In this document: piece after piece, positions 10,596-56,215 of the stretch | How the letters are laid out: every line of letters begins with the position of its first letter | Numbering within the stretch: position 1 is the stretch's first letter | Virus record (IMG/VR): IMGVR_UViG_3300023082_000011 | Span: 410-64,409 of that record | Source of the DNA: a virus | Reading direction: 5' to 3' (one strand) | Length of the DNA stretch: 64,000 nt | Made by a program: the position numbers and the translations under genes | Notes under the pieces: model-generated | What the model was told of the DNA's origin: nothing | What the model saw: only the letters and a program-made list of their open reading frames with translations | Databases searched by the model: none

Positions 10596-10947
10596 AATAT
10601 TCTTTTAATTGTTTTCTCCTTAATTCCAAATGTCCAAGTATCCATTTATAACCGGCATCAACTTTCTTGCCACCATAAACATAATAATGCTCCAAAGGTA
10701 AATCGAAATTTTCATGCTTCCTAATAAAACCCAAATTATTTTTTATTTTACGTCTCCAGCCGCCCATAAAAAGAAAAGTCAGCAAAGCAATTAAGTTAAT
10801 GGTAGGTATCACCACAAAGAAAAATTCAACCCCTAAAGGCTCCTTTCCATATAGGCAACCATCTTTGTGATAATAGGAAAGCCACAGAAGTCTCCATAGT
10901 GTAAGCATAGGTATAAGATAGGCCAAGGTAAATATAAGGTACATCAT
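10576..10947 (-). CDS. membrane protein (123 aa)
   Basis: Two to three hydrophobic helices (LIFTLAYLIPMLTLWRLLWL; VIPTINLIALLTFLFMGGW). Confidence 0.4.
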   Translation of the reverse strand: MMYLIFTLAYLIPMLTLWRLLWLSYYHKDGCLYGKEPLGVEFFFVVIPTINLIALLTFLFMGGWRRKIKNNLGFIRKHENFDLPLEHYYVYGGKKVDAGYKWILGHLELRRKQLKEYYEQTKI

Positions 10948-11468
10948 TTTTTAGGATCCAACATTTTAATCACCCTATCATAATCCGCCTTGATGAAAAG
11001 GTTGAAGCAGGGAATTTCATGCAATTTTGCTACCATCCACGCAGTTCTTGTGCCATGTAGCGGGTTACCATCCTTGTCTATTTTGGCATAACATATAAGA
11101 AACTTGCTAGGCTCTTTTAATGTTGACCCAAGAACTTCAAATACGTTTCTCGCGTGCAATTTCCACCCCGCATCAGTAAGGGCTTTAGGATTGGGGTGTA
11201 TTATGCTTACCAACTCCATGGCATCCTGAACTTTTTCTGGTATCAAATCCTCCAAGGATATGCCATAACCGAAGTTTTTCCAGGGGATGAAAATTTGTTT
11301 GTTTTCAAGCTTATGGACACCTTTCTGATAGGCAAAATCCGATCCCGCAGCTCCTCCGGATCTAAGTATGTAGCCCTGCTTCTCCAATTCGGAAGCTATC
11401 TTCGTCATCAAGTCACAAATTTCCTTGGGTGTTTTCCTTGAACCTACGCCCGTGTAGTATTTACTCAT
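10944..11468 (-). CDS. SLOG/DprA/LOG-like Rossmann-fold protein
   Basis: YTGVGSRKTP ... LRSGGAAGSDFAYQKG resembles the GxGxR / GGAxGxD signature of SLOG-superfamily (DprA, LOG, YpsA) domains. Confidence 0.4.
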   Translation of the reverse strand: MSKYYTGVGSRKTPKEICDLMTKIASELEKQGYILRSGGAAGSDFAYQKGVHKLENKQIFIPWKNFGYGISLEDLIPEKVQDAMELVSIIHPNPKALTDAGWKLHARNVFEVLGSTLKEPSKFLICYAKIDKDGNPLHGTRTAWMVAKLHEIPCFNLFIKADYDRVIKMLDPKK

Positions 11469-11707
11469 AGACTCTCCCTTATTTTTTGAAGTTCCTTTTT
11501 CACATTATCCCAATAAACAAAAGAAGTAATCGAGTTTGTAAGATGGTATAATATCTCTTCAACGAATATCAAAGATACGTCCACGGCGTAATAATCAGAA
11601 ATACCGTAGTCATCCGTTTTGTAACCCTTCTCAAATTCTATTTCCAAATAGTTGGAGGGAATATTTACCTTTTGTATTAAATCCTTAGCTTTTTCTTCTG
11701 CTGTCAT
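11465..11707 (-). CDS. hypothetical protein (80 aa)
   Basis: ORF track; ATGA overlaps on both sides. Confidence 0.35.
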   Translation of the reverse strand: MTAEEKAKDLIQKVNIPSNYLEIEFEKGYKTDDYGISDYYAVDVSLIFVEEILYHLTNSITSFVYWDNVKKELQKIRESL

Positions 11708-11952
11708 AAGTTATGTATCTTGTAAGTAGGAGGAGATAAGTTTTTATATTTTCTAACTGTATCTGTGGCCTTAGCTAAAGATTCTTGTGGGCGCACATTA
11801 TCTATATCTTCATATAACAAATATGATACTTCTCCCCGAACCAAGACTTCAGCTATTGTTTTCCAATCTTCACTGAACAATCTTCCGGTACCCCTTGTTT
11901 GGGGATAAAAACCTTCACCTGTCTCTAAGACTCTATATTCGTTTCTCTTCAT
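11704..11952 (-). CDS. hypothetical protein (82 aa)
   Basis: ORF track; ATGA overlaps. Confidence 0.35.
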   Translation of the reverse strand: MKRNEYRVLETGEGFYPQTRGTGRLFSEDWKTIAEVLVRGEVSYLLYEDIDNVRPQESLAKATDTVRKYKNLSPPTYKIHNL

Positions 11953-12416
11953 AATAATTCACTCAATAATTTAGGTGTATAATCTATTACTTCGCATGAT
12001 ACGTTTATGTATCTTTTGTCTGGCAAACTTTTCTCATGGACGTGCCCGTGGACGTTACCCTTAAAACGTGTAAGTTCACTCTCGTGGATAGGTATGTGAC
12101 TTAACATGTAGCCTTTATACTGTATACAGCCGCACACTTTATTCACATATTTCAACAATTCGGGTACGTGTTGCGGTTGGTCATGATTACCAAGTACCAC
12201 GTTTTTTATGCCGTTCAGTTTTGAAAGCAAGTGGTAAGGCGCAGTCTTTTCCATGGAAATGTCGCCAAGTATCCAAACCGTATCCCTTTTGTTCACCACC
12301 TTGTTCCAACTTTCTATTATACGATTGTCGTGTTCCGTTTCATCCTTGAACCCACGTCTTAAAGCCATGTTTTTGTGGCTTAGGTGAAGATCCGAAATAA
12401 AAAATACCCTGCTCAT
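11949..12416 (-). CDS. calcineurin-like metallophosphoesterase (candidate RNA end-healing phosphoesterase)
   Basis: Motifs DLHLSH (DxH), GDIS (GDxx), GNHD, GHVHE; 155 aa; adjacent to Pnk, Rnl and Thg1-like genes. Confidence 0.7.
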   Translation of the reverse strand: MSRVFFISDLHLSHKNMALRRGFKDETEHDNRIIESWNKVVNKRDTVWILGDISMEKTAPYHLLSKLNGIKNVVLGNHDQPQHVPELLKYVNKVCGCIQYKGYMLSHIPIHESELTRFKGNVHGHVHEKSLPDKRYINVSCEVIDYTPKLLSELL

Positions 12417-12556
12417 AGGGCGACAAGCATTAAAACAGCCCCGGTTACGACCCCTACAAGAAAAGCTCCTATGACTAAGTCATTAATTTTGAATTCAATG
12501 TAATTTTGATGTTCTGATTTTACTGTCAACTTTAAATATTGTTTTAGCTCTTTCAT
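12413..12556 (-). CDS. small C-terminally membrane-anchored protein (47 aa)
   Basis: Manual translation MKELKQYLKLTVKSEHQNYIEFKINDLVIGAFLVGVVTGAVLMLVAL; its TGA stop overlaps the ATG of the phosphoesterase (ATGA). Confidence 0.3.
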   Translation of the reverse strand: MKELKQYLKLTVKSEHQNYIEFKINDLVIGAFLVGVVTGAVLMLVAL

Positions 12557-12585
12557 GTTTTAAATCTTTGATACAAAGGTATAGA

Positions 12586-12620
12586 ATAAAAAACGTGGAC
12601 CATTATTAGCCCACGTTAAA
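12586..12620 (-). terminator. putative rho-independent terminator after the Pnk gene
   Basis: Minus-strand hairpin aacgtgg..ccacgtt followed by a TTTTTT run. Confidence 0.35.
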
Positions 12621-12626
12621 AAAGTC

Positions 12627-13511
12627 TTAAAAATTACCATATTCTACCTGAAATACTTTTAAACCCAATGACCGGGCTCGCCTTACAACTTGACACTGGT
12701 CGTCGTAAAGTGCCTCTATATAGTAGCTTTTAACTATACTTCTCCACATTTCTTCCTTCACCACCCAATCAGGCCTTTGGTCACCGTTTTTCCGCATCAT
12801 CAAGTGGTCATAAGGAATGTCGTGATATTCCAGCCAAGAGTTGGTTCTTTCAAAAGCTTCAAAGTCACGCCCCGTACATATAATTAATGTGTTGTTCGTA
12901 CCTATGGCATTTTTTACGGAAGTGACAATATCGTCTTGGTCAACTTTATCCCAATCGTATGGTCCCCGTTTTCCGGCCATGTCGGCCAAGGTCCCGTCAA
13001 GGTCGTAAATGGTACAAGGCTGTTTGTGGGATTTATTCTCTAGGGTAACCGGTACATAGTTCCCACGCCGTTGTAAATTTTTGTACTTATCATATTGCTT
13101 CCTGATGACTTCCTCGCCTACCTTACGGTTTCTGAGACTGTCACGTAAGAGGGTTTCCTCCAAAGAAATGTCAAAGTAAACGTATTCTATGGGAACGTTC
13201 CAGAATTCAAACCTGTCAAGATATTTGTTTTCTAAATGCGTCGCGTCCACTATTACGTCCTTACCTTCCTGCAAGGCTTCATGTATCAGGGTATCTTCAT
13301 ACTTGGTCACAACCTTTTCCAATTTGGAAAGGTCAGGGCGTTGATAGTACTCCGATATTGATTGTTCCGTGTAACTGAAGAGTGTCTCACATAACTTATC
13401 GCGATTTATCACTACGGTATTCAACGGATTTTTTAACCATTCGTTGTGTGCGAACGTCGATTTGCCAGAATTACTACAGCCGACCGTGACAATTATCTTA
13501 CTATCCTTCAT
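12627..13511 (-). CDS. pnk: polynucleotide 5'-kinase/3'-phosphatase (T4 Pnk-like)
   Basis: N-terminal P-loop VGCSNSGKST (kinase) and C-terminal HAD phosphatase motif IYDLDGTLAD (DxDGT); 294 aa. Confidence 0.8.
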   Translation of the reverse strand: MKDSKIIVTVGCSNSGKSTFAHNEWLKNPLNTVVINRDKLCETLFSYTEQSISEYYQRPDLSKLEKVVTKYEDTLIHEALQEGKDVIVDATHLENKYLDRFEFWNVPIEYVYFDISLEETLLRDSLRNRKVGEEVIRKQYDKYKNLQRRGNYVPVTLENKSHKQPCTIYDLDGTLADMAGKRGPYDWDKVDQDDIVTSVKNAIGTNNTLIICTGRDFEAFERTNSWLEYHDIPYDHLMMRKNGDQRPDWVVKEEMWRSIVKSYYIEALYDDQCQVVRRARSLGLKVFQVEYGNF

Positions 13512-14823
13512 CTTCTATGTTTGAAATTTCTTTTTCTTGTTCATCGGATTCCATCAACAGGAATTTTTTTGACTTTAATTTATAGGCTTCGTATTCATAT
13601 AAAGATTCCTTGCGAATAATTATCCCTTCTTCCGGTACTTTGTTTACGCACATATAACAATCTTTCTCGTTAAACCTTGATTCTAAACACTTAACAAAAT
13701 CTTCGTTAAAATATCTCCCCAATACTTTATCATTCACATCGTGACGAATGTTTTCAAAAAGGTCTATGGCCACCCCATAAAACAATAAAGTGTCCTTGAA
13801 TGGTAGCCCAACTTTTTCATAATACTCGTCTATCTGTTTATCCGATAGATAAATTACTTCACCATCCAAGTTAACCACCGAGATTTTGTATACGTAAAAC
13901 TTATGTTCACCTGGTTTGCAACCATAATCGTATTTTCCTTGAATAGGATTTCCAGAAGGAGTGTAACCTAAAATCTCTCCATATAGGGTCCAGTTTTTGG
14001 GGATAAGCGGCCCAACCTCGGCGGCAACCACACCCCAGATATCCTCTCCATAAAATCCTTCACCTTGTGTGGGGTTAAGGTAGCCGTTTTTAATTACCTT
14101 ACGGCTAGAGTAGATGATATCATATTTTTTCTTGTTTACTTTTACACCAAAAAATTTAGCTAATTTCTCTTTCCAAGTGAGGGGTTCATTCACCAAAACA
14201 TTTCCTATGACCGCACTGGTCCCATGCTTTTTGTAGTGGATACCTATAACATCATTTTCATTTATTTTATGTGCGTTTTTTCTAAAGTTGTCGGTATCCC
14301 CATGTAGGTAGAACTGATTATCCACCAGTCTGTTTATCTTAACTGATTTTTGTACTTTTGAATTTTGCGATTGAGGGATTTTTACTATGTATTTTTCACA
14401 CAAACTATTCCCGTTGATATCAGTAAATTCATCCCCAATTTTCAGGGAATTTATGGAGGTCGGCTCTAGGAAGGGTAAAAGACTTGTGAGGGGCATGAGC
14501 ATACCGTCGGAAATCACCCCACGTAATTTGAGGGCCTTTACTCGTCGCTGGCGGAAAGAGATGAATCCGCGTTTATCCTTGTCATAATTCTCCTCGGCCT
14601 TATCATAGAGATTGTTTTTACTACAATATTCCTCATTAAGTTGTGTACCCGAAACGAAATAAAGCATAGTTTCGCCTTCCTTAACGTCCTTTGATACCAC
14701 AACGTTATTTCCATTAACAACGACCCGTTTGATGTTATCGGCACCTTCTATATCAAATACCTGTCCGATTCGTACTACACTACAAGCATAGTTTTTGCTG
14801 TTTTCTTTTACTTCTAGTTTCAT
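13501..14823 (-). CDS. ATP-dependent RNA ligase (Rnl2/Rnl5-like nucleotidyltransferase with an N-terminal extra domain)
   Basis: Motif I KxHG (IHYKKHGTSAVIG) about 200 aa from the N-terminus, YGEILG (motif IV-like), KFYVYK (motif V-like); immediately upstream of pnk as in T4. Confidence 0.6.
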   Translation of the reverse strand: MKLEVKENSKNYACSVVRIGQVFDIEGADNIKRVVVNGNNVVVSKDVKEGETMLYFVSGTQLNEEYCSKNNLYDKAEENYDKDKRGFISFRQRRVKALKLRGVISDGMLMPLTSLLPFLEPTSINSLKIGDEFTDINGNSLCEKYIVKIPQSQNSKVQKSVKINRLVDNQFYLHGDTDNFRKNAHKINENDVIGIHYKKHGTSAVIGNVLVNEPLTWKEKLAKFFGVKVNKKKYDIIYSSRKVIKNGYLNPTQGEGFYGEDIWGVVAAEVGPLIPKNWTLYGEILGYTPSGNPIQGKYDYGCKPGEHKFYVYKISVVNLDGEVIYLSDKQIDEYYEKVGLPFKDTLLFYGVAIDLFENIRHDVNDKVLGRYFNEDFVKCLESRFNEKDCYMCVNKVPEEGIIIRKESLYEYEAYKLKSKKFLLMESDEQEKEISNIEDEG

Positions 14824-14830
14824 GTTTTTA

Positions 14831-15679
14831 TTAAAATAACTTTAAAATTTGTTCCCTGTCTTTACCGAAAAATGGTGTGTCTTCCACTACTTCCCACTTG
14901 TGTCTTGTCGTGAACTGATTGGCGTTTTCTTCATTGATTTGTGTTTCGCTATCCAATATCCCATTCACATATCTTCTTTTCATTATGAACGATCCACGTT
15001 TCTTTGAAGCATCCAGGTTATTCCAGTTATGTCCTTTCTGGAAACACATTTCCTGCATATCGCTTCCGTTCTTTTTATGTAGTTCCGAGTGTGAATAAAG
15101 GCTTTGCGCCAACATGGCGACCGAATTTTTCTCTGCGTCGCGTTGTCTCCAAAGGAAGTAATTCAGTACTTCGTCTTTTTCGGGTATGGTAAAGGTGCGG
15201 GAATCAAATACGGCTAATTTGAAACCCTCGATCTCATAATCTGTCAAAGCCTTTATGGAGTTTATCTCATGAGGACCTTGTGGTTGTGAAGTTTCGACAA
15301 CGGATGTTTTTCGCAGCATGCGAAGTTGGTTAAACTTTGCCGCCGCCATTGAAGCCGAAATGGAAGTAATCTTCTGGATGTTACCGTCAAACCAAGCACT
15401 TGTCTCCAACTTATCGAAGTCAGTCAATAACAAAGAAATTTCGTCCGACTGTGTGTAACCGAATTTACATCCCTGAATATTTTCACACAGATAAGCCGTA
15501 GTAAGCTGCATGTCCTCAATGAGACCTTCGTCAAAAGGTTTGTCCAATCCTTTAACGTAAGAATGGAATGCTTTTCCATCTAACCTAATAATAGTGTGAG
15601 TCCTACGTGGTAAATAATGTCTTGCACGAAATTCGTAATTTTCTTTAATGCGCTTTCCAAGTCCTGAGTTATCTGACAT
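14831..15679 (-). CDS. Thg1-like protein (tRNA-His guanylyltransferase family, 3'-5' nucleotide polymerase)
   Basis: HTIIRLDGKAFHSY ... DKPFDEGLIEDM ... GYTQSDEISLL matches the Thg1 family signature (vvRiDGrnFhkF / KPnD / YgQSDEiS). Confidence 0.8.
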   Translation of the reverse strand: MSDNSGLGKRIKENYEFRARHYLPRRTHTIIRLDGKAFHSYVKGLDKPFDEGLIEDMQLTTAYLCENIQGCKFGYTQSDEISLLLTDFDKLETSAWFDGNIQKITSISASMAAAKFNQLRMLRKTSVVETSQPQGPHEINSIKALTDYEIEGFKLAVFDSRTFTIPEKDEVLNYFLWRQRDAEKNSVAMLAQSLYSHSELHKKNGSDMQEMCFQKGHNWNNLDASKKRGSFIMKRRYVNGILDSETQINEENANQFTTRHKWEVVEDTPFFGKDREQILKLF

Positions 15680-15853
15680 AATTTTAAATTTTATTGTCCC
15701 GAATATTATCTATGGTAGGTTTTAAATAGAAGTAGTCATCTCCCATAATCATACAGACAAAAGGAATGATGATAGTGCAGGCACCTATGAACCACACTAC
15801 GATTATAAAGAATATCAGTATCTCCAAGAAACTGTTGTATAAAAAGTTGTTTA

Positions 15854-16249
15854 TCATTTCCCTATCTCTAACATTTTACTTGCAAAATCCATAAATTGTG
15901 AGTTGGATCCAAGATGTTTTTCCCCTAGACATGACAATATCGCAGTTTCCAACGTAGCACAAACTTTCGAACTTGGGTACCACTTATCTTCTCCATTCTT
16001 ATAGATGTACCTGAAAGGATATTTACTGTCCCAATCCTTTCCCCTCACCGTATAGATTACGTAGTCCTTCGTGTCGAGTAAAATTTCTTGTAGATTATTT
16101 ATAGAAGCTATGGACTCCACAAACTCCCTGGCCTGTTTTCTTTCCACTTCGTACAAGGCAGCCCTTTCTATGAAGCCTTTATTGGATAACTTTTGCATGG
16201 GCGACAGATTGCTGCCTTCTATGAGTGCTAAAATTTTGTCCGTGTTCAT
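15854..16249 (-). CDS. hypothetical protein (131 aa)
   Basis: ORF track. Confidence 0.4.
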   Translation of the reverse strand: MNTDKILALIEGSNLSPMQKLSNKGFIERAALYEVERKQAREFVESIASINNLQEILLDTKDYVIYTVRGKDWDSKYPFRYIYKNGEDKWYPSSKVCATLETAILSCLGEKHLGSNSQFMDFASKMLEIGK

Positions 16250-16346
16250 TTTTTAATTATTTACGGTACAAAATTAGGTAAAGTAAAAAGCCCTGACAAG
16301 TGCCAAGGCTTTAAAGTTTTGTTAAAAGTATTTATCTATAATTTCT

Positions 16347-17318
16347 TCAAATGAATTTAAAATCCAAAGCGCTCATTTCAGGATTTAATCTTAAAAACTT
16401 TTCTAAAGGCATTATTATAGGATGCTTTCCACGACTAACAGAAGCTAATAACGTTGATTTTACTAATCCTAACTGCCTTGATGCTTCACTTACAGAGGGG
16501 TAGACAATTAGAGTATTTTTATCAATAACTTGTTTTTTCTTGGTTGTGGGGAGAGGAATCTCGATATTGAGAGTATCACCCTCTTTATAATCCTTAAGAT
16601 ACTTAAAGGGACTTCTGTTTACATCTGGATTTGAAAGCCATACGACTATAGTTCTATATTTGTAATCTTTACATGTTTTAGCAGCTAATTTTACTGTCTT
16701 GAAAACTTCTTTTGTTAATATATTTATCACTTCCCACCCCAGTCTTCTATCTTTATGAATATTAACATTTGTAAAAAGTCCTGAAAGATAATCTTCATAA
16801 AATTTTTTATAAATATAGGGAGTATCGTTAGTAACTCTTCCGGCCAACTTAGCTTCAAAAACAGTCCCATACCCTTCATAGCTACGTGCATCAGATATGC
16901 ACCCAAACTCTTTTTTGGTTAATACATTAATTACTGGGACAGCAACGGGGTTCTTGGATCCTTTTTGATTTTCACCATATCTCCTCCTAGCCTCCTGTGA
17001 AAAAGTCCTTCTATTTGCTCCACACTCAACTAAAGCTAAATTTAAGCCCTTTTCTCTATCTAAAACATCATAGAAATCTTGCCAATAACGTTCCCTACAA
17101 TTTAGGTCTGCTTTAACGCATTCTTCTATAATCTCAACTGTATGATTTTCAAAACCATACTTAATTAATGAGTTGTATAATTTAAACTGATACTCACAAT
17201 TTAAATTTTTATACTCTGTGTGCCTTCTGTGGATGTTAGTTGAAGACCCCACATAGATTTTTTCGGCGGGGCTTGTGATTTTGTACACACCTGACACTAC
17301 TTTTATCTTTTTTCTCAT
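16347..17318 (-). CDS. GIY-YIG homing endonuclease
   Basis: GVYKITSPAEKIYVGSSTNIHRRHTEYKN; freestanding, immediately downstream of the DNA polymerase gene. Confidence 0.75.
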   Translation of the reverse strand: MRKKIKVVSGVYKITSPAEKIYVGSSTNIHRRHTEYKNLNCEYQFKLYNSLIKYGFENHTVEIIEECVKADLNCRERYWQDFYDVLDREKGLNLALVECGANRRTFSQEARRRYGENQKGSKNPVAVPVINVLTKKEFGCISDARSYEGYGTVFEAKLAGRVTNDTPYIYKKFYEDYLSGLFTNVNIHKDRRLGWEVINILTKEVFKTVKLAAKTCKDYKYRTIVVWLSNPDVNRSPFKYLKDYKEGDTLNIEIPLPTTKKKQVIDKNTLIVYPSVSEASRQLGLVKSTLLASVSRGKHPIIMPLEKFLRLNPEMSALDFKFI

Positions 17319-17462: not shown

Positions 17463-19616
17463 TTATGAAATTCTAATTTTACTTGGTTTGATTTCTTCAG
17501 GAACACCATATTTGTCAGTTAACCATTCCCTTACATATTGTTCATATTGTTTTTCGGTAGGTATTTTATTCACGCAAAATTTAAGATAATTTTCTTCTTC
17601 TTTCTCACGTTTTGTTTTATCCCTTAAATTTTTAGCTTCTTCTAACATACGTTCCTCAGTTCCATCAATCTTATGTATTAACTTATAACATTCATCAACA
17701 TAGTATTCATAATCAATTTGATATTTTTCTATTGGTAATTCAAAATATTTATTGAAAATTGTTACTTTTTTACCAGCTTCATATTCGGTAGATGTAAGTT
17801 TTGGTTCTCCAGTTATTTTATCTGGTTTATAGGTACATTTACGGAACGATTTACCATTGGTTGATACAAAGTATCTATTGTTCTTTTGTTGTTTCGTTAT
17901 ATCGCTTATTTCATCATTATTGTCACAAACAAAAGTTTCGGCCCACCATTCACCAGTAGTATTTCCTGTTTTACAAAATTCATAGATATCGTTACACTCA
18001 GACAAAGTTTTTTCTACGGGGATGTTTTCAAGAAAATACTTATTCACCGCCGTTGAAACTATTCCTTGAGAAAATGCCTTATGCCACTCCCCATCTTTCC
18101 TTAATTCTTCGTTATCCTTAAAAGTTCCTTTGTATTTAGTGGAAACCTTTGGTTTATATATATAGGAATCGTTTTCAAAAAATATTTCATTTGAAGAAAC
18201 GGCAATGTAGTTATTTACGTCACGTATGACCATCTTTGAATACTCAACATACTCAAGCTGCAATTTACTGATTTCTTGCCAATAATTACAGACCTTGAAA
18301 TACATGTCGATATGTTTTCTGTCAAACTTTACGGTAACACCGTCCGTATTTATTTGTAACATCTGCAAACCTGGAATTTTCATGAACATGAGTTCAGAAA
18401 GCATCAATAAGGCAAGTTGCCCCGCCAAAGTTGTTTTGAGGGTGTATAAAGGATCATAAAGAAAGCTGAATTCACTGTTGCTCTTACCGTATACGCTATT
18501 GGCTGAAAGTTTATAACCATCGGCCATGATTTTATCCCTCATCTTTCCGTCCACTTTTTCTTTGGCATATAGACGGGGTTTTACAATACCGTCTTCATAT
18601 ACCTTTGAAAAAACTTCACCCAAATGTGCAGGATAAAGTTTTTCGGCAATGGCCAAACTCGGATAAAGACTTGCCACGTCGGCGTCAATTATTATTTGGT
18701 CTTCCGCAGCATAAACCCCTGCCTTAATACAACCATGTATTCCTCCCGTTCCAATATCAAACTGAAAATCGTTTGAAGTAAAACTGTAGGCAAAAGAATC
18801 TTTCAATTCCTTGACTTCGATACTTTGTATGTAACTAAACATTTCCTTGAAAGGTTCCGTGCGGAATTTAATATATGAGGGAACGCATTCCGCAAATTTA
18901 AAAAGACTTCTGTGGGTCCTTAAACGTTTAACAATTGCCTCGGATAAACCTGTAGCCTCGCAATAAAGTTTTAAAACAAGCTGCTCACCTATCTTTGAAT
19001 CGGGGTAATTGATACATTTCATTCCATATTTCTTCAACAACCCCCTACGAAGTTCCATCTTACCTTCGGTCTTGTAATAGAACTCTTCCGTGGCGTTTAC
19101 GTCGTTGATGTTGTAATCCAGAATTTCCTGTACCTGTTCAACGGTTTTGATTTTGGTTGTATGGTGGTAAGGCATATCCAAAACGTTGGGATAATTCATA
19201 TTTATCTCAAGTCTCTTTAAGCTAGTGATACGTGCCTTGTTGTTAAAGTGCCAAATAGCAAAAAGATCCATTTGTGGAATCATTACTTCCTCTTCCTTTA
19301 CTGTGGAAAATTCGGCCTTGATAACAGACTGTGCTTTCTTATATACGGAAGCTGTTATTTTATCCCCTGTCCAATATTGCATTTCGGGGATACCTTTTAA
19401 CAAATGGTGTATTACCGGATAGTCGAATGCTAAATTATTGTATCCCACCATTCCTTTACATTTACGTAAATGGTCTACGAATGAGGCGTAATCGTTCCTT
19501 TCCTTCCAAATAACAAATTGTACTATTTCTTTTGTATCCCTGTTCTTGGCTGTATATGTAAACAAATTAGCCAATGTTTCAATATCATAAATCCAAATTC
19601 CTTTATCTTCCATCAT
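17463..19616 (-). CDS. family B DNA polymerase
   Basis: Exo I YDIETL; Pol motif A DADVASLYPS; motif B KLSANSVYGK; motif C QINTDGV (YxDTD-like); 717 aa. Confidence 0.8.
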   Translation of the reverse strand: MMEDKGIWIYDIETLANLFTYTAKNRDTKEIVQFVIWKERNDYASFVDHLRKCKGMVGYNNLAFDYPVIHHLLKGIPEMQYWTGDKITASVYKKAQSVIKAEFSTVKEEEVMIPQMDLFAIWHFNNKARITSLKRLEINMNYPNVLDMPYHHTTKIKTVEQVQEILDYNINDVNATEEFYYKTEGKMELRRGLLKKYGMKCINYPDSKIGEQLVLKLYCEATGLSEAIVKRLRTHRSLFKFAECVPSYIKFRTEPFKEMFSYIQSIEVKELKDSFAYSFTSNDFQFDIGTGGIHGCIKAGVYAAEDQIIIDADVASLYPSLAIAEKLYPAHLGEVFSKVYEDGIVKPRLYAKEKVDGKMRDKIMADGYKLSANSVYGKSNSEFSFLYDPLYTLKTTLAGQLALLMLSELMFMKIPGLQMLQINTDGVTVKFDRKHIDMYFKVCNYWQEISKLQLEYVEYSKMVIRDVNNYIAVSSNEIFFENDSYIYKPKVSTKYKGTFKDNEELRKDGEWHKAFSQGIVSTAVNKYFLENIPVEKTLSECNDIYEFCKTGNTTGEWWAETFVCDNNDEISDITKQQKNNRYFVSTNGKSFRKCTYKPDKITGEPKLTSTEYEAGKKVTIFNKYFELPIEKYQIDYEYYVDECYKLIHKIDGTEERMLEEAKNLRDKTKREKEEENYLKFCVNKIPTEKQYEQYVREWLTDKYGVPEEIKPSKIRIS

Positions 19617-39995: not shown

Positions 39996-41537
39996 TTATT
40001 TAATAGGGCATACACCACTGGCACATTCGTCCAGACCGGAGATATCATTTTCAGAAATATTAACTGAAGTGATAGGTTTCACGTTTTTAACTAATCCCTC
40101 GTATACTTCCTTGGTGATTGCCTCAAAGGGAGCCTGTATAAATCCGTGCCCAGAGTAAAGCAAGAAGCTTAGGGTCTTGAAGTTTTCGTTGAAGTTGTCC
40201 TCAATATATCTTCTTAATTGTGGTAATTCCTCTTTCTTGTAGTAGGCTGTGACACTTACGGAATTATCCGACCAAGTTTTCTGCATCTGTTTAACTTTGT
40301 CGAGTTGTTCAAACACGGTCAAGTCATCCGCCCCTATGGTGCCGTCAGGGTATTTACAAGGAAATTCTACCACCATGGTAGATCTGTCGGCAGTCCCGTC
40401 AAAGTTAATCTGTGATTCAACCTTGTAGCCGTTTGTCCTACATACTTCAATCAAAGGCGAACCGGCCTGTATCCTTATACGTCTGATAAAGTATTGTCCC
40501 GCAGTGGCCGGATGGACACCAGACGTACAACCCGCCAACAAGGATAAACTACCGCTAGGTTTAATTGTGGTTAATTTGATACTTGGATTAAATCCCATTA
40601 ATTTTGAATACTCTTTATCGTACTCACGTAAGTATTTGTAGCAATCATCCAACCAACTCAGTTGCTCTTCAGTAGCCATCATGACTCCAGTTATGCCTAT
40701 ACCCATACGCATATTCTTGTGGACAATCGACTCTGTTTCCTTGCTGTGGCAAGGTAGGGCCAGTGAATGTTTTACCACTCTATACAACATTATGACTACC
40801 TTATAGAGTTCCTCTTTGGAAACGATGTTTGGCAAGTACGTCTCGGCCAAAGCACAAGTCTCGTGGTTTGCCAAAGATTGTTCAGCACAAGGGTTGTATC
40901 CTTCTATATCTGGGTCGGGGTACTCTGTTTCTCCCGATCTACCTATTTTTTTAGATAGTTGTATGTTCACTAGTCCATAAGGCTCACCTTGTTCGTAAGT
41001 ATCCCAAAATTCCTGTGGCAACAGTTTAGCGTCAGGTACATCCACAGAATTGTTAGACATTGCCCTCCAATTGGGGATAGAGCCTAAATCCCAACGTTTT
41101 GCCTTAAGATATTCCAAATCGTCATAATCCCCTATAGCTATTTGTGCAGACCGTCTAACGTTACCTGCAACCACTATCATCCCTATGATGTTCATGATAT
41201 CAAGACAGTCAATGGGACGAAGTTGTTGCCCTCTTCTGTTATCCAAGACTGCACAGATAAGCTTAATACCTTCCACTAAAATCTCGGGGCCAGAGGCTAC
41301 CCCTCCAAAACCTTTTATGGGTGCACCTTCGCCCCTTATTAGCTGTGTAGAGTAAGTAAAACTTTCTCCTGAGTAGAAGTAGGATTTCAACACCTTTCCT
41401 AAGAGTTTCACCCAACCCTCTCTTGTGTCTGGCACAATAAAGTCTGCCTGTGCATTGTCCACACGTTCAACCTTTATCTTTCTTTTTTGGAGCTTTGGTA
41501 GCTTGTACACATGCTCCTTCTTGATTGAAAAGCCAAC
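39996..41537 (-). CDS. ribonucleotide reductase, exon 2 (catalytic core and C-terminal CxxxxC tail)
   Basis: NPCAEQSL..ETCALAETYL (active-site NPCGE..E.C.L), GFGGVASGP, C-terminal ECASGVCP; frame upstream of the GTG reads ..KVGFSIKKEH, placing the splice acceptor near 41537. Confidence 0.65.
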   Translation of the reverse strand, partial: VGFSIKKEHVYKLPKLQKRKIKVERVDNAQADFIVPDTREGWVKLLGKVLKSYFYSGESFTYSTQLIRGEGAPIKGFGGVASGPEILVEGIKLICAVLDNRRGQQLRPIDCLDIMNIIGMIVVAGNVRRSAQIAIGDYDDLEYLKAKRWDLGSIPNWRAMSNNSVDVPDAKLLPQEFWDTYEQGEPYGLVNIQLSKKIGRSGETEYPDPDIEGYNPCAEQSLANHETCALAETYLPNIVSKEELYKVVIMLYRVVKHSLALPCHSKETESIVHKNMRMGIGITGVMMATEEQLSWLDDCYKYLREYDKEYSKLMGFNPSIKLTTIKPSGSLSLLAGCTSGVHPATAGQYFIRRIRIQAGSPLIEVCRTNGYKVESQINFDGTADRSTMVVEFPCKYPDGTIGADDLTVFEQLDKVKQMQKTWSDNSVSVTAYYKKEELPQLRRYIEDNFNENFKTLSFLLYSGHGFIQAPFEAITKEVYEGLVKNVKPITSVNISENDISGLDECASGVCPIK

Positions 41538-42585
41538 CTTTTCTGTTATCTCATAGGCTCTTTATCCTATGATTCTGCACCTTCATTTGTTATACGTGCA
41601 GTTCAGACTATATCATCAGTATTTCTACTGCTGGACGCTCGTGTCAGCATTACTGTCCCAGTAGGACTCGGCTGTTAGTCGTTGAACCTTCAAAAGTGTT
41701 ACCACTTAAGCTTGGCTGCTGATAGTCCCCTTTAGTAGGATTTTCCAGCAATTCATCCAGTTTTACTCGGGCATTGGACAGAATGTACTTATTTTTAAAT
41801 ATCTTACTTGAATTAATATAATGATAGATGACCGTAGTAGTTTCAAAAATCTTTTTAGCTTGATCCACAGATTCAATTTCTGTGATTTCTTTTGTTTCAA
41901 TGTTAAGACAATACAACGTTTTATAGTTTTTTGGTATAGGAACTTTTCTTTGTTCCCACTTACCAGGGGGTTTAGCCCCTTTGTGTCTTATTTGAAACTG
42001 CCTTAATCTTTTTGAGTTCCTTCTCATACTATTTTGAATGTGCTTATCAGATATACCGATAAATTTAGCACATTCTGTATGACTTGGAAAACTCCTTAAA
42101 AAGTTACCTTCTAAGTCATACACATCTACAGATTTTCTTCCAGATAATAATTTCCCTTCTTCGTGAAGTTTCTTGACGGACTTAGAAATTTTTTCTCTCT
42201 GCTCGTCAGAAAATACCCTTAAAAGGCCCCCGATACCTTTATCGTGGGTGTTTGTCAAATCAAACCCTTTATCAAGATAATCTTTGATTATCTGTTGTTC
42301 TGCTTTATAACTCTCTTCCCAACCTTCTACTTCCGATATCATCTCAATTATAGGTGATAATCCCTTTTTTGCCAAACTTAGTATCCAACAATCCTTATGT
42401 GTTTTAGGATTACTACTTTTAGCTTTGGATTTGTGCCCTGATAATCTTACTTTTAAGGAATTTTTTGTTCTTCCTATATAGCGAATTAGATTTGTGGTTG
42501 GATCAGTGAGACTGTAGATCTTGACTTTCATTATATTGATTTGTCGTAAAGATATAAAATCTTATAATACAAACCAAATTTATTT
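41538..42585 (-). mobile_element. group I intron (~1.05 kb) with an internal GIY-YIG HEG, interrupting the RNR gene after the GSG codons
   Basis: Exon 1 ends ..LMLGSG with a T (U) as its last nucleotide (stop TAA two codons later), and exon 2 starts VGFS.., together rebuilding the conserved GGGVGFS motif; an S-element-like UGAUAUAGUCUG lies ~60 nt before an intronic ..AAAAG 3' end; HEG ORF 41650..42531. Confidence 0.5.
41650..42531 (-). CDS. GIY-YIG homing endonuclease (intron-encoded)
   Basis: KIYSLTDPTTNLIRYIGRTKNSLKVRLSGH; C-terminal DNA-binding-like region; sits between the two RNR exons. Confidence 0.75.
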   Translation of the reverse strand: MKVKIYSLTDPTTNLIRYIGRTKNSLKVRLSGHKSKAKSSNPKTHKDCWILSLAKKGLSPIIEMISEVEGWEESYKAEQQIIKDYLDKGFDLTNTHDKGIGGLLRVFSDEQREKISKSVKKLHEEGKLLSGRKSVDVYDLEGNFLRSFPSHTECAKFIGISDKHIQNSMRRNSKRLRQFQIRHKGAKPPGKWEQRKVPIPKNYKTLYCLNIETKEITEIESVDQAKKIFETTTVIYHYINSSKIFKNKYILSNARVKLDELLENPTKGDYQQPSLSGNTFEGSTTNSRVLLGQ

Positions 42586-46439: not shown

Positions 46440-47520
46440 CAAATGCCCGGAGTAAATTAGTTAGTTAATCCAGACAACTGTCGTCCATTATTTTTGAATC
46501 AAATCTGCATATTTCAAGTTCTCCCTACCCATCCTAAGTAACGTGAGGTTGAACTTCTGTGTAGGTTTTTCTTCGCGTTCGTTATATCGGAATGCCATCT
46601 CGTCGCAATACTTCTGTAAGTGTTTCCTGCTTACCTGATAGTACGTTCCTATGATGCTTCTTTTTAGGTGGCTCCAATGGTTTTCAACTGGATTACTTGT
46701 ATATCCGTCGTCAGTCACGTAATTCTTGGCTCCGTGGTTCACGACTTTTTGGTTGTAGTACCTGTCCAATCCCGCATAACCCGTCCACTCGTCGGTGACT
46801 ATGGTAGACCCCTGCGGTACGAGTTCCCATACCAAAGGCTGTAATGTCATTGATTTGGTGTCGGGAACCACCTTAGTGTACACCTTTCCGTCCTGCATCA
46901 TACCGAATACCGGAGTCTTGTCTTTGTAACTGCGGCCTTGCGATTGCTTTACTTTCTTGTCCGCGTGACGGTTCTTGTTTTTTCCTCCCACAAATGTCTC
47001 GTCCATGGTTATCACCATATCCTGTTGTATGTCGGGAACATCCTGCTTATAGGAATGTCTTATCCGGCTAAGCATGAACCAGGCCGTCTTTTGGGTCAAA
47101 CCCAGATCCTCGGCAAGCTGATAGGAACTTATCCCGCGTTTATGGGACGAAAACAGGTAGACCGCAATGAACCAATGGCGAAGGCCGATGGGCGAGTTCT
47201 CGAATATCGTCCCAACCCGAACCGTGTACCTCTTTCTGCAAGTTCCGCATTTGTAGAGGCCGTTAAACTCTCCCTTTACGTTGAGTTTGTATGCTTTCTG
47301 TCCTTCGCAGTGCGGACATTTGGGTTTGCCTTCCCACAGCACATCTTCCAGGTATTCCCTGCACGATTTCTCGTCGGGCAGCACCCTCAACATTTCCGCA
47401 AACGACTTGAATTCCAATTTACACATAACCAGAACTTTAAAGTGTATAAATTTACTGAATCGGGGTGAAACGGGCAAATATGTTGTTCAAATTCCTATGA
47501 AAATTTTGTTAATTTTAGAA
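46440..47520 (-). mobile_element. IS1595-family insertion sequence (ends approximate)
   Basis: Contains the single transposase gene 46488..47477; terminal inverted repeats not confidently resolved by eye. Confidence 0.4.
46488..47477 (-). CDS. IS1595-family DDE transposase
   Basis: N-terminal zinc ribbon CPHCEG..CGTCRKRY, HTH, MVITMDETFVGG, TIVTDEWTGY, VVNHG, NPVENHWSHLKR and AFRYNER follow the IS1595/ISXO2 transposase motif order. Confidence 0.8.
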   Translation of the reverse strand: MPVSPRFSKFIHFKVLVMCKLEFKSFAEMLRVLPDEKSCREYLEDVLWEGKPKCPHCEGQKAYKLNVKGEFNGLYKCGTCRKRYTVRVGTIFENSPIGLRHWFIAVYLFSSHKRGISSYQLAEDLGLTQKTAWFMLSRIRHSYKQDVPDIQQDMVITMDETFVGGKNKNRHADKKVKQSQGRSYKDKTPVFGMMQDGKVYTKVVPDTKSMTLQPLVWELVPQGSTIVTDEWTGYAGLDRYYNQKVVNHGAKNYVTDDGYTSNPVENHWSHLKRSIIGTYYQVSRKHLQKYCDEMAFRYNEREEKPTQKFNLTLLRMGRENLKYADLIQK

Positions 47521-53127: not shown

Positions 53128-53472
53128 TTAATTTATTTTCATTTCCAATGCCTGCTCTTTGGTGGGAACCCAATCCCCGCCTAAATAACCCATGACCCAA
53201 TCGTAGAGATTATCGTAGGGTACTTCGGGACCACTGTTGGATCTGAAATTTATGTTATTTCCCATGCCCCTGAAAGATATGCTCCACACGTCCCCAAACC
53301 TTGTATCATAGCAGTTGTCTATATACTTAATCATGAAGCCATATTCTGGCAGGTTCGGGTATTTTTGTTTTGTTTCTTCACTCCTACCGTCAGATGATAT
53401 ATACCCAAATCTGTGATGTTGTTGGATGAAACTTAGCACTTTATTGTATTGGTCTGGTGACATTCCTTTCAT
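53128..53472 (-). CDS. hypothetical protein (114 aa), downstream of the DGR RT
   Basis: ORF track; overlaps the RT 3' end. Confidence 0.35.
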   Translation of the reverse strand: MKGMSPDQYNKVLSFIQQHHRFGYISSDGRSEETKQKYPNLPEYGFMIKYIDNCYDTRFGDVWSISFRGMGNNINFRSNSGPEVPYDNLYDWVMGYLGGDWVPTKEQALEMKIN

Positions 53473-54394
53473 ATTTATTCCTTAAATTTACCGAATTACA
53501 ATGCGCCAACCAAGAATTGTGGTTCATCTTAATTGGGTTCTTTTTGTACTTTTGTTTTATAGACTTCCTTAGTAATACGTGGGTGTGATAATGTCGAAAT
53601 CCTACCCAGTCTATACCCCTACTTTCTACGGGAAATATTTGGTGGTTTGATTTAACCTCCAGTTTTAGGTTGTCCCCCAAATACTTCTTGATTTCTTGAA
53701 ACCGCGTATGAAGTTCTTCCTTACTGTCTGACAAAATTACAAAATCGTCACAATATCTTTGAAAATACTTTATCCGCAAAACTTCCTTAACCCAGTGGTC
53801 GAAATAGGTGAGGTAGAAGTTAGCCAAAAACTGACTTGTGTAAGATCCCAAAGGCAAGCCTTCTTCATAAGAGTCTATTACGTCATCCAATAACCATAAA
53901 ACCCCCCTATCCTTAAACTTTTTTCGGAGCAGCCCTTTTAATATACTCTTGTCTACGGACTGATAGAATTTTCTTATGTCCAACTTAAGGCAGTATTTCG
54001 TACCTTCTGCGTCTTTCAGGTAATTCCTCAGCTTATAAGATGCTGCATGCACACCCCTTCCTTTTATGCAACTAAAGGTATCCGCCGTGAAAGTCTTTAT
54101 AAACAAAGGCTCCAAAACATTTAGAACTACATGATGTACTATACCATCAGGGTAAAATGGGAGTGAGGATATTGTTCTTTCCTTACCCTCAAAAATGGTG
54201 AAGGTGTGGTAAGGAGAAGTAGTGAATGATCTATACTCCAACATCGCCTTTATTTTCCACAGATTTTCTTCCCTATTTTCCAGATGTCTTTTTACTCCCC
54301 TTTGTTTGGCTTTACCTCTTTTGGCCTTAATCTCCGCTTTTCTTATGTTATCTATGTCAACTATCTTTTCAAAAAGGTTGCCTATACGTTTCAT
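53441..54394 (-). CDS. diversity-generating retroelement (DGR) reverse transcriptase
   Basis: RT motifs: LKLDIRKFYQSVD (motif A), LPLGSYTSQFLANFYL (DGR-specific [IL]GxxxSQ in place of QGxxxSP), RYCDDFVIL (YxDD); 317 aa; adjacent TR/VR pair. Confidence 0.85.
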   Translation of the reverse strand: MKRIGNLFEKIVDIDNIRKAEIKAKRGKAKQRGVKRHLENREENLWKIKAMLEYRSFTTSPYHTFTIFEGKERTISSLPFYPDGIVHHVVLNVLEPLFIKTFTADTFSCIKGRGVHAASYKLRNYLKDAEGTKYCLKLDIRKFYQSVDKSILKGLLRKKFKDRGVLWLLDDVIDSYEEGLPLGSYTSQFLANFYLTYFDHWVKEVLRIKYFQRYCDDFVILSDSKEELHTRFQEIKKYLGDNLKLEVKSNHQIFPVESRGIDWVGFRHYHTHVLLRKSIKQKYKKNPIKMNHNSWLAHCNSVNLRNKYERNVTRPIQ

Positions 54395-55128: not shown

Positions 55129-55719
55129 TAGGTAATCTATAAGCTGTCTTACATTAGACGATGGTATTTCTACCAAGATAGTTTAGCTACCTATTTACTT
55201 ATAAATCTTCCGCCTCAAAGGGAACCTACAAATTTGATAGAATTATTAACTCAGATAATCACCCGCCTCAGTATTACTACCGTTTATCACCATTACATGT
55301 TATCTTAACGTCAGATTATCCTTACTGGGTCGATTTTGTTAACCCTATCAAATAATAAATGAAACCAACCCTCACTTTTCCAAGGTGATGAAGTAAATAT
55401 GACCACCCATCGGCTTTAGTACCTAATGTCGCTTTAAACCTAAACGGTCAATTAGCTTTAAACCCACTAAAATGGGTGCCTGTTATGTTACTTACTATTC
55501 ACTTCACCCAATCAACAGAAACGACTTGGAATGTCTAAAACCTTGCTGTTTTTGGTGAGTGCCATCTCCAAAGGTTTCTTCCATCAATTGGCGGGTTGGT
55601 TTCAAATGTTATTTATATGGAACCTCTTCCCATGATATTGATACTTTAACTTTCCATTTGTGTTCCTGCCTTCCCTTCTTATATCCATCATTACTTTCTT
55701 TAAGATTTATTTTACTTCC

Positions 55720-55802
55720 AGACGAATATGGGATTCGAACCCATGACCCTTTCGGATATAAGGATGTGTACTTACGCAATAATCCACCTCTGCCAATTCG
55801 CC
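55720..55802 (-). tRNA. class-II-like tRNA or tRNA-like gene (83 nt, no encoded CCA) with an apparent 8-nt anticodon loop UACACAUC
   Basis: Manual fold: acceptor GGCGAAT/ATTCGTC (7 bp, one G-U), U8, D-stem GCAG/TTGC with GG in the loop, anticodon stem GUAAG/CUUAU, 13-nt variable arm, T-arm ATGGG-TTCGAAT-CCCAT. Confidence 0.45.
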
Positions 55803-56215
55803 CCACGGCATCCATGTATAATGAGTATTGACAGGTTTTGGTATCGATGACATTCGGCCAATTTTTATGCAGTGTCTGCTGCTCCTATCAATATTTTAAT
55901 GCGTCCCTTGTATCTGTGCACAGATTGTTGAACCAAGGGTAATTTTAATCAACTTTTTTAGTTTTCAATGTTATTCCAAGAAGTGAAACGGTTCATCCTA
56001 ATCACGTCTGATACACTTTTTAACTCTCACATTGGTTACATGGGTTAGCCCATTCTTACGTTTCTGCCAGTTTGCACCCGTACAGACCGCCTTTGCTACC
56101 ATTTATTATGTGGATATAAGCTCCACTCCAAGGAATAACATTGTTTAATGTGTCGGGAGGGAAACTATGCCCATCATTTCAAGTATTGAATACACGCTTT
56201 TGCCGGCCATTTGCA

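Follow-up and report, generated by a model that had tools for sequence, protein, structure and literature searches.

A predicted three-enzyme RNA break-repair module, comprising a Thg1-like protein, an RNA ligase and Pnkp, in an uncultured phage

We analysed a stretch of viral DNA of 64,000 nucleotides (nt) from IMG/VR record IMGVR_UViG_3300023082_000011 (positions 410 to 64,409; hereafter the window, in whose positions all coordinates are given) and found that three adjacent genes probably form an RNA break-repair module. These encode a Thg1-like protein (TLP), an RNA ligase and a T4-type kinase/phosphatase (Pnkp), and are probably co-transcribed with two small upstream open reading frames (ORFs). 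The carrier is an uncultured phage of ~139 kb. For the three enzymes, family membership, tight spacing and recurrent linkage in other phages are observed directly, and the recurrent linkage of their genes supports a joint role for TLP, ligase and Pnkp in RNA repair. An initial annotation of the window had combined them with a metallophosphoesterase and a SLOG/DprA-like protein into a single contiguous cassette. The ORF listing returns all five genes at exactly the coordinates given there and on the minus strand, which is the coding strand throughout the cluster region, and profile searches against Pfam and PHROG upheld the family calls. Contiguity holds for the three core genes, with a gap of only 7 nt between TLP and ligase and an 11-nt overlap between the ligase stop and the Pnkp start. 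It does not extend to the phosphoesterase, which is separated from Pnkp by a 210-nt spacer containing a strong terminator-like hairpin, a promoter-like box and a 47-residue ORF, nor to the DprA-like gene, which lies beyond two further small ORFs (orf82 and orf80) that follow the phosphoesterase.

Family assignments of the core enzymes

Profile searches, the test set beforehand for the assignment of 14831-15679 as Thg1-like, place its product firmly in the Thg1/TLP family (Thg1 PF04446, E 2e-25, 89.6 bits against a cutoff of 29.2; phrog_4717, E 2e-80). Its best solved relative is the TLP of Bacillus thuringiensis (BtTLP; PDB 4kgk; E 7e-57), whereas the matches to eukaryotic Thg1 structures (E 1e-6 to 2e-9) and to archaeal TLP are far weaker. 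Taking residue roles in BtTLP from PMC3701042 and mapping them via the alignment, the metal-binding/catalytic carboxylates D34, D79 and E80 of the phage protein correspond to BtTLP D30, D75 and E76, the activation-site residues K47 and S78 to K43 and S74, the NTP-binding residues R32 and R161 to R28 and R131, and E16 to E12. M189 aligns with BtTLP M158, the position of ScThg1 N161 (Met rather than Asn), and the eukaryotic HINNLYN motif was not found in the protein. Because BtTLP is the best match, its residues are kept and HINNLYN is absent, the gene encodes a bacterial-type TLP, as opposed to a eukaryotic Thg1-type enzyme, with a complete set of catalytic residues. All of these residues are common to the two proteins, the phage TLP differing from BtTLP in an insertion of ~26 residues at positions 121-153 and in a longer C-terminus. 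Enzymes of the BtTLP type have been described to repair 5'-truncated tRNAs in vitro by Watson-Crick-templated addition in the 3'-5' direction (PMC3061083, PMC3701042, PMC6471195).

The ligase matches phrog_968 strongly (E 6e-57). Mycobacteriophages Omega and Cjw1 encode members of the same 'RNA ligase' family, to which it is ~33% identical over its full length. Conservation was assessed across 63 distinct homologues (21-74% identity). The motif I lysine K198 (in KKHG, residues 198-201), G201, E283 (motif III), G286 and Q295 are invariant in all 63, while E399 and G400 (motif IV) and K415 (motif V) are kept in 62. A single-sequence search of the PDB with the ligase gave no match; a profile search reached the nucleotidyltransferase (NTase) domain of T4 Rnl2 and the N-terminal domain of NgrRnl at E ~0.002-0.004, and an NTase fold was found for the protein. 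The Rnl-type KxHG ligase of the initial annotation thus belongs to the covalent nucleotidyltransferases, its motif I lysine being invariant, and appears to have Rnl5-like architecture with an Rnl2/Rnl5-like NTase. The comparison drawn there with T4 Rnl1 did not stand. Similarity of fold, seen in a predicted structure of moderate confidence (pLDDT 69.5, pTM 0.45), would place the enzyme on the branch that seals nicks in duplex RNA and not on the Rnl1 branch, and suggests a substrate preference to match. Since the ligase falls in a clade that seals duplex-RNA nicks, the analogy with T4 Pnkp-Rnl1 and with anticodon-loop repair is only loose. Compared with the Rnl5 ligases of Naegleria gruberi (NgrRnl) and Deinococcus (DraRnl/DRB0094), the phage protein is ~100 residues longer and has low-confidence inserts (149-175 and 241-259) and an acidic tail.

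Selfish elements often target RNA ligase genes of the Rnl2-like and Rnl5-type families. An Rnl2-like ligase at locus L047 (7331-9451) contains an intein carrying a LAGLIDADG endonuclease, mycobacteriophage ligases are split by HNH genes, a DUF723 endonuclease lies between ligase and Pnkp at L153 (6630-7946), and P0105 has an insert of ~60 residues.

Pnkp consists of an AAA_33 domain (residues 7-144) and a HAD_PNKP domain (166-294; Pfam, E 3e-34), matches phrog_505 (E 1e-76), and can be aligned along its entire length both to T4 Pnkp (1ltq; E 6e-26) and to Pnkp1 (4xrp), a component of the Capnocytophaga Pnkp1/Rnl/Hen1 repair complex. The P-loop is at residues 11-18 and the phosphatase motif DLDGT at 170-174, and the phosphatase site is intact (D170, D172, R182, R215 and D270-D271). 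The T4-Pnk-like kinase/phosphatase of the initial annotation is therefore borne out in its bifunctional T4-type architecture and its phosphatase; its kinase is a weaker point, to which we return below. The protein scores 21.5 bits against TIGR04075 (bacter_Pnkp), for which the cutoff is 750, and so falls outside the bacterial Pnkp/Hen1 system, and no Hen1-like or methyltransferase match was found among the ORFs of the cluster with Pfam or PHROG.

Linkage of the core genes in other phages

IMG/VR relatives of the ligase were recovered only with an alignment as query, a single-protein scan having found none, and neighbourhoods were examined for those that are 56-73% identical to it. Whether related phages share the gene order had been left by the initial annotation as a check, and for TLP and ligase they do: a TLP gene lies directly upstream of the orthologous ligase in two diverged relatives. 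The order is TLP, ligase, a 206-residue protein and a stand-alone kinase in one of them (L003), and TLP, ligase, DUF723 endonuclease and Pnkp in the other (L153). The TLPs of the window and of these two loci share 61-75% mutual identity (61-65% relative to the window TLP); because they have diverged about as much as the ligases, the pair appears to have been kept while its surroundings changed. Three further relatives (L004, L154 and L156) have ligase and Pnkp only, and a fourth (L155) has the ligase with a split kinase. The closest ligase relative, L152, is one of several sister loci in which RlaP stands beside the same ligase-kinase core and TLP is missing, the order there being ligase, 206-residue protein, kinase and RlaP.

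The same association is evident when TLP genes are taken as the starting point. In a census of IMG/VR viral contigs (68 TLP clusters after de-duplication at 90% identity), an ATP-dependent RNA ligase is encoded within 3 kb in 21 of the 68, as against 3 of the 68 at 3-10 kb, which makes RNA ligases ~16-fold denser in the immediate surroundings of phage TLP genes. Among the genes immediately adjoining TLP, the Pfam family seen most often is RNA_ligase, and the ligases near TLP are Pfam-confirmed as either Rnl2-like (PF09414 only) or Rnl5-type (PHA02142 and PF09414). In the closest relatives of the window TLP (59-66% identical; L005-L007 and L009), the gene directly upstream of TLP encodes an Rnl2-like ligase. 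Pairing of TLP with nick-sealing ligases that are not orthologous is thus recurrent, and the recurrence of the adjacency in two relatives together with the local density of ligases is more than chance. A first census by tblastn, in which none of 80 TLP loci had an orthologous ligase, was discarded as an artefact of low sensitivity, since iterative hidden Markov models (HMMs) and Pfam found ligases beside many TLPs. In phage XacN1, TLP and a ligase of the same family are ~4 kb apart. The cultured Bacillus phage Goe8 (L001, 5989-10737) has a TLP 2.8 kb upstream of an RtcB ligase, which may mean that TLP is linked to a third, unrelated class of ligase as well.

Among 41 de-duplicated ligase clusters, the families encoded within 3 kb are Pnkp, kinase or HAD (27 clusters), phosphoesterase (10), RlaP (4) and TLP (2), with no DprA-like gene in any. 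An end-healing enzyme and an RNA ligase are therefore encoded together as a conserved pair, as the overlap of the two genes in the window also indicates.

Two other explanations of the locus bear on these counts. The first is that it serves two independent functions, with TLP maturing or proof-reading tRNA 5' ends (by adding G-1 to tRNA-His opposite C73, or by 5'-editing of mismatched phage tRNAs) and ligase and Pnkp healing and sealing separately. Homologues of the TLP are annotated as tRNA-His guanylyltransferase in public phage records (161 records of cultured phages have an annotated homologue), some of the cultured phages with a TLP are tRNA-rich jumbo phages (XacN1, for example; PMC7824862), a ligase is absent within 10 kb in 44 of the 68 TLP clusters, and mycobacteriophages of cluster J have TLP, ligase and Pnkp at separate sites. 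However, the protein is of TLP type and not Thg1 type, as judged from the missing HINNLYN motif and the Met at the position of ScThg1 N161, and a search of the window and 18 kb of flanking contig for canonical tRNA genes was negative, yielding one aberrant tRNA-like element only and leading us to reject a role in tRNA-His maturation of phage tRNAs. Moreover, neither separate functions nor chance would predict recurrent linkage with two non-orthologous types of ligase, and we regard this explanation as improbable. The tRNA-like element itself (55719-55803, minus strand) combines a canonical T arm (GGTTCGAATCC) with a 7-bp acceptor stem and a long variable arm but has an anticodon loop of 8 nt, with the anticodon called as 'caca' by ARAGORN, and scores 20.3 bits against the Rfam tRNA cutoff of 29.

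The second is that the genes have no joint function at all, being auxiliary genes acquired independently and brought together at an insertion hotspot beside homing endonucleases. A GIY-YIG endonuclease gene (16347-17318) is indeed found upstream of the repair unit, homing endonucleases occur next to or inside the ligase gene in relatives, and the contexts are highly mosaic. Set against this are the retention of the TLP-ligase pair, at the protein identities given above, in three otherwise different contexts, the enrichment of ligases near TLP genes and the overlap of ligase with Pnkp, such that a mere hotspot seems to us very improbable.

Transcription signals, flanking genes and genomic setting

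The features of the region are collected in Table 1. Strong hairpins bracket the five genes from orf131 to Pnkp, and this suggests that orf131, orf57, TLP, ligase and Pnkp form one transcription unit, with a second unit running from orf47 into the phosphoesterase. The upstream hairpin folds at -15.3 kcal/mol (z -5.05) and the one beyond Pnkp at -14.9 kcal/mol (z -6.23), and in neither case did any of 200 shuffled sequences fold as well. Both are followed by a TAnnTTTG box (16269-16276 and 12574-12581) upstream of the next start codon, and there is no other minus-strand match to this motif between 12581 and 16269. The motif occurs 108 times in the window compared with 79.7 +/- 8.5 expected, and a scan for sigma-70 promoters did no better than on shuffled sequence. 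We offer the Bacteroidetes-type -7 box as a promoter by way of suggestion only. From the excess of the motif and from DUF4494 and BT4734-like neighbours, the host is probably a Bacteroidota bacterium.

Table 1. Genes and putative transcription signals in and around the repair cluster (window coordinates)
Feature	Position	Strand	Description
Terminator-like hairpin	16287..16312	-	11-bp stem and T-run; closes the GIY-YIG endonuclease unit and forms the 5' boundary of the repair unit
Promoter-like -7 box	16269..16276	-	TAATTTTG; TAnnTTTG box of Bacteroidetes type, with the orf131 start codon 20 nt downstream
orf131	15854..16249	-	ORFan; first gene of the putative transcription unit
orf57	15684..15857	-	Small hydrophobic protein; 4-nt overlap with orf131; no Pfam match
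TLP	14831..15679	-	282 residues; predicted member of the bacterial-type templated 3'-5' RNA polymerase family
RNA ligase	13501..14823	-	440 residues; ATP-dependent family, N-terminal OB domain and NTase
Pnkp	12627..13511	-	294 residues; predicted T4-type 5'-kinase / 3'-phosphatase
Intrinsic-terminator-like hairpin	12592..12617	-	10 nt past the Pnkp stop codon; 11-bp stem, then UUUUUUAUU
orf47	12413..12556	-	47 residues, small, membrane-like; TACCTTTG box (12574-12581) upstream; no Pfam match
Metallophosphoesterase	11949..12416	-	155 residues; calcineurin-type
DprA/SLOG-like Rossmann protein	10944..11468	-	174 residues

For orf131, no Pfam or PHROG match and no homologue in the other loci compared were found. 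The stop codon of orf47, a gene also called at L151, overlaps the phosphoesterase start, and 4-nt overlaps chain the phosphoesterase to orf82, orf80, the DprA-like gene and orf123. An Rfam scan of the cluster found no structured RNAs inside it.

The phosphoesterase is a clear member of its family, with a score of 26.7 bits against Metallophos PF00149 (cutoff 21.5), a match to phrog_547 (E 3e-48) and all five motifs in place (DLH 9-11, GD 51-52, GNHD 76-79, H107 and GHVH 124-127); its nearest solved relative, aq_1665 (1xm7), is of unknown function. As regards membership of the cassette, related phosphoesterases occur near ligases in the 10 of 41 clusters noted above, Metallophos is the second commonest family among TLP neighbours, distant relatives (25-34% identity) adjoin ligases in several clades, and one locus (L102) has the order ligase, Pnkp, phosphoesterase as in the window. 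The closest orthologues (33-77% identity), however, have a ligase or Pnkp within 6 kb in only 1 of the 20 loci found, and the gene lies beyond the hairpin that follows Pnkp. Thus, while the family call of the initial annotation stands, firm membership does not, and we have downgraded the gene to a possible accessory of the cassette, a role that we consider doubtful. If it does take part, it may add 2',3'-cyclic phosphodiesterase or another end-cleaning activity. The 206-residue protein after the ligase in L003 and L152 was found to be 'phosphoesterase-like' through an iterative HMM and a 29% tblastn match only, with no Pfam support.

The DprA-like protein matches phrog_768 over its full length (E 5e-59) and PF02481 over residues 7-55 only, at 21.4 bits and below the cutoff of 29.6; it gave no PDB sequence match and no relatives in the single-protein IMG/VR scan. 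No DprA-like gene lies within 3 kb of a ligase in the 41 clusters, and one was seen only once, 9 kb away, among 80 TLP loci. Inclusion of this gene in the cassette, as first annotated, is rejected on the grounds that it is unlinked to ligase or TLP in the ~150 other loci examined.

The cluster sits in a replication and nucleotide-metabolism module with helicases, methyltransferases, ribonucleotide reductase, an exonuclease and homing endonucleases. A gene at 17463-19616 (minus strand; 717 residues) encodes a protein with 33-35% identity to annotated phage DNA polymerases; it had no Pfam or NCBIfam match at the thresholds used, and relatives of the phage have an ordinary DNA_pol_A in the equivalent position. 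This setting invites a further alternative, in which the enzymes would be an end-processing set for replication or DNA repair, with Pnkp and ligase joining RNA-primed, RNA-DNA hybrid or damaged DNA ends and TLP working at the 5' ends of primers. In relatives the gene immediately before the ligase is DNA polymerase A, T4 Pnkp acts on both DNA and RNA ends, and ligases of the Rnl2/Rnl5 type can join an RNA strand ending in 3'-OH when the template is DNA. However, TLP action has been shown on RNA only, mainly tRNA (PMC6471195), and RlaP, the partner in sister loci, acts among cellular macromolecules on RNA only (PMC12776372). In addition, early auxiliary genes commonly sit in phage replication modules, such that the placement is not specific evidence, and a replicative role is, in our estimation, quite unlikely.

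An identical ligase protein is encoded on a metagenomic contig of 139,261 bp (ENA ERZ27228600, k141_544085), of which the window represents ~54.6-118.6 kb, and on a Logan contig; no near-identical DNA was found in cultured phages. Elsewhere in the window, a group I intron (Rfam RF00028, 63.8 bits; 41587-41827, minus strand) interrupts the ribonucleotide reductase gene (ORFs 39996-41510 and 41650-42531) and falls inside a homing-endonuclease-like ORF of 293 residues (41650-42531). A compact reverse transcriptase of 317 residues is encoded at 53441-54394 (minus strand; RVT_1, E 3e-16; phrog_1423, E 5e-108), and an IS1595-family transposase gene within the replication region (46488-47477, minus strand; DDE_Tnp_IS1595, E 7e-42) adjoins the only plus-strand ORFs of at least 150 residues in the window. 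The same contig carries, a few kb outside the window, a SIR2-domain gene (L158, 3537-4241) and a 72-residue RF-1/GGQ-domain gene (L159, 13778-13996), whose product may be a peptidyl-tRNA hydrolase that serves in ribosome rescue. At one other viral locus, an RF-1-domain protein is encoded immediately next to TLP.

A proposed repair pathway and its relation to known systems

We rank the three alternatives discussed above below a three-enzyme repair module. For such a module, we infer that the substrate is RNA as opposed to DNA, that tRNA is the target, that TLP and ligase act in sequence and that the purpose is counter-defence. In the first step of the proposed pathway, a ribonuclease of the host or of a competitor would break a structured RNA, most plausibly a tRNA, leaving 2',3'-cyclic or 3'-phosphate and 5'-OH ends and sometimes removing nucleotides. 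Pnkp would then heal these ends, its HAD phosphatase producing a 3'-OH and its P-loop kinase a 5'-phosphate. If a paired region has lost nucleotides on its 5' side, as in an acceptor stem truncated at the 5' end or a gapped stem, TLP would activate the 5'-phosphate with ATP or GTP and re-add Watson-Crick-templated nucleotides in the 3'-5' direction. Finally, the Rnl5-like ligase would seal the 3'-OH/5'-PO4 nick in the duplex via Lys198-AMP and App-RNA intermediates and formation of the phosphodiester bond. The need of TLP for a 5'-phosphate supplied by the kinase is a link first drawn in PMC2904730.

Breaks with loss of nucleotides are also suggested by the sister phages. RlaP extends damaged RNA at the 3' end by one or two nucleotides and is needed after excessive tRNA damage (PMC12776372). 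From its position next to the same ligase-kinase core in sister phages without TLP, we infer that RlaP and TLP both restore nucleotides lost at a break, each working from a different side. Taken to its fullest extent, TLP, Pnkp and the Rnl5-like ligase could act one after another in templated gap repair, with 3'-5' fill-in of nucleotides excised from tRNA stems followed by sealing of the remaining nick, the ligase taking the App-RNA of TLP or an accessory enzyme (the phosphoesterase, for example) trimming the 5'-triphosphate. We put forward this last scheme tentatively and think it unlikely to hold as it stands.

Several points weigh against a joint repair module. The first concerns the chemistry: the 5' end of a TLP product carries a triphosphate, and TLPs are inefficient at removing pyrophosphate when the end is Watson-Crick paired (PMC6471195), whereas the ligase needs a 5'-monophosphate, so that the hand-off from TLP to ligase has an unexplained step. 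TLP and ligase might act on different lesions, some other enzyme might trim the end, or the ligase might take the App-RNA intermediate of TLP. The second concerns the Pnkp kinase. The essential kinase residues of T4 Pnkp are K15, S16, D35, R38, D85 and R126 (PMC2831316), and the phage protein lacks the full set. K17, S18, D38 and R127 are kept, but Cys41, seen in two independent assemblies, occupies the position of the essential Arg38, which is Arg in 31 of 34 homologues (L153 included), and Ala90 that of D85, where the clade instead has an Asp at the preceding residue (D89; in 33 of 34 homologues). This leaves kinase proficiency uncertain, and the cysteine may weaken 5'-phosphorylation; mammalian PNKP without this arginine still phosphorylates longer substrates (PMC2831316), and the phage kinase is therefore possibly altered and not dead. 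The third concerns the ligase, whose domain scores (34.4 bits for the PHA02142 OB domain and 28.2 for RNA_ligase PF09414) are only marginally over the cutoff of 27, whose sequence likeness to Rnl5 ligases is marginal (profile E about 0.004) and far under the NCBIfam equivalog cutoff for DRB0094 (25 versus 151 bits), and whose proposed substrate preference depends on a structural model of moderate confidence. Furthermore, 39 of the 41 ligase clusters have no TLP nearby and, as described above, 44 of the 68 TLP clusters have no ligase within 10 kb. Since most ligase relatives lack TLP and most TLP clusters lack a ligase, the coupling of the two is facultative. Lastly, the literature searched contained no biochemical or genetic data on any phage TLP or on this ligase subfamily, and no experimental study of a phage TLP.

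The cassette is less novel than the initial annotation had supposed. Neighbourhoods of the type Thg1-PNK-(RNA ligase/Macro), in large DNA viruses among others, and a role for them in RNA repair were predicted in 2010 by Anantharaman, Iyer and Aravind (PMC2904730), and Thg1 was listed among the nucleotide-restoring enzymes of jumbo-phage RNA repair by Iyer et al. in 2021 (PMC7824862). The enzyme families are the same three, and in both settings the 5'-phosphate made by the kinase would feed Thg1/TLP and the ligase. The 2010 examples came mainly from bacterial genomes, featured a stand-alone PNK and were computational only; here the genes belong to a 139-kb phage and include a T4-type bifunctional Pnkp and a 440-residue OB-domain ligase. 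The locus is accordingly a compact and well-preserved example of a predicted, uncharacterised kind of system, not a new kind.

With the T4 pathway, in which Pnkp and Rnl1 counter the PrrC anticodon nuclease, the phage cluster shares a full-length Pnkp homologue, the logic of healing followed by sealing and the counter-defence context, this last being a proposal in the case of the phage cluster; it differs in the addition of TLP and in the cysteine at the Arg38 position of the kinase. A mycobacteriophage Pnkp and a ligase of the same family as ours have been proposed as an RNA repair pair (PMC3706429), and the genomes of Omega and Cjw1 and their relatives (clusters J, E and L) likewise combine this ligase family with a T4-type Pnkp. 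Cluster J phages also carry TLP, but their genes are dispersed, with TLP and ligase ~13 kb apart, whereas in the window they are adjacent and probably co-transcribed. The RlaP-RNA ligase systems (PF10127; PMC12776372) resemble the present cluster in restoring lost RNA nucleotides, an activity that is predicted for the phage TLP, and in the shared ligase-kinase core of the sister phages. The two enzymes are unrelated in fold, however, and RlaP extends the 3'-OH by one or two nucleotides, while TLP would add templated nucleotides at the 5' end.

The linkage of TLP to nick-sealing ligases and end-healing enzymes in phages provides a concrete three-gene system to reconstitute, and the presence of RlaP beside the same core in TLP-less sister phages points, as a hypothesis, to the repair of breaks at which nucleotides have been lost. 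To our knowledge, no physiological role has been assigned to bacterial-type TLPs, BtTLP included, since in vitro 5'-end repair was found in 2010. A 2019 review is in line with this view (PMC6471195). If the gap-repair scheme is correct, it would provide the first physiological role for bacterial-type TLPs, and the phage could undo the action of nucleases that remove nucleotides and do not just cut. Phage RNA repair would then go beyond the T4 heal-and-seal paradigm, and host defences that excise nucleotides from tRNA stems would be implied.

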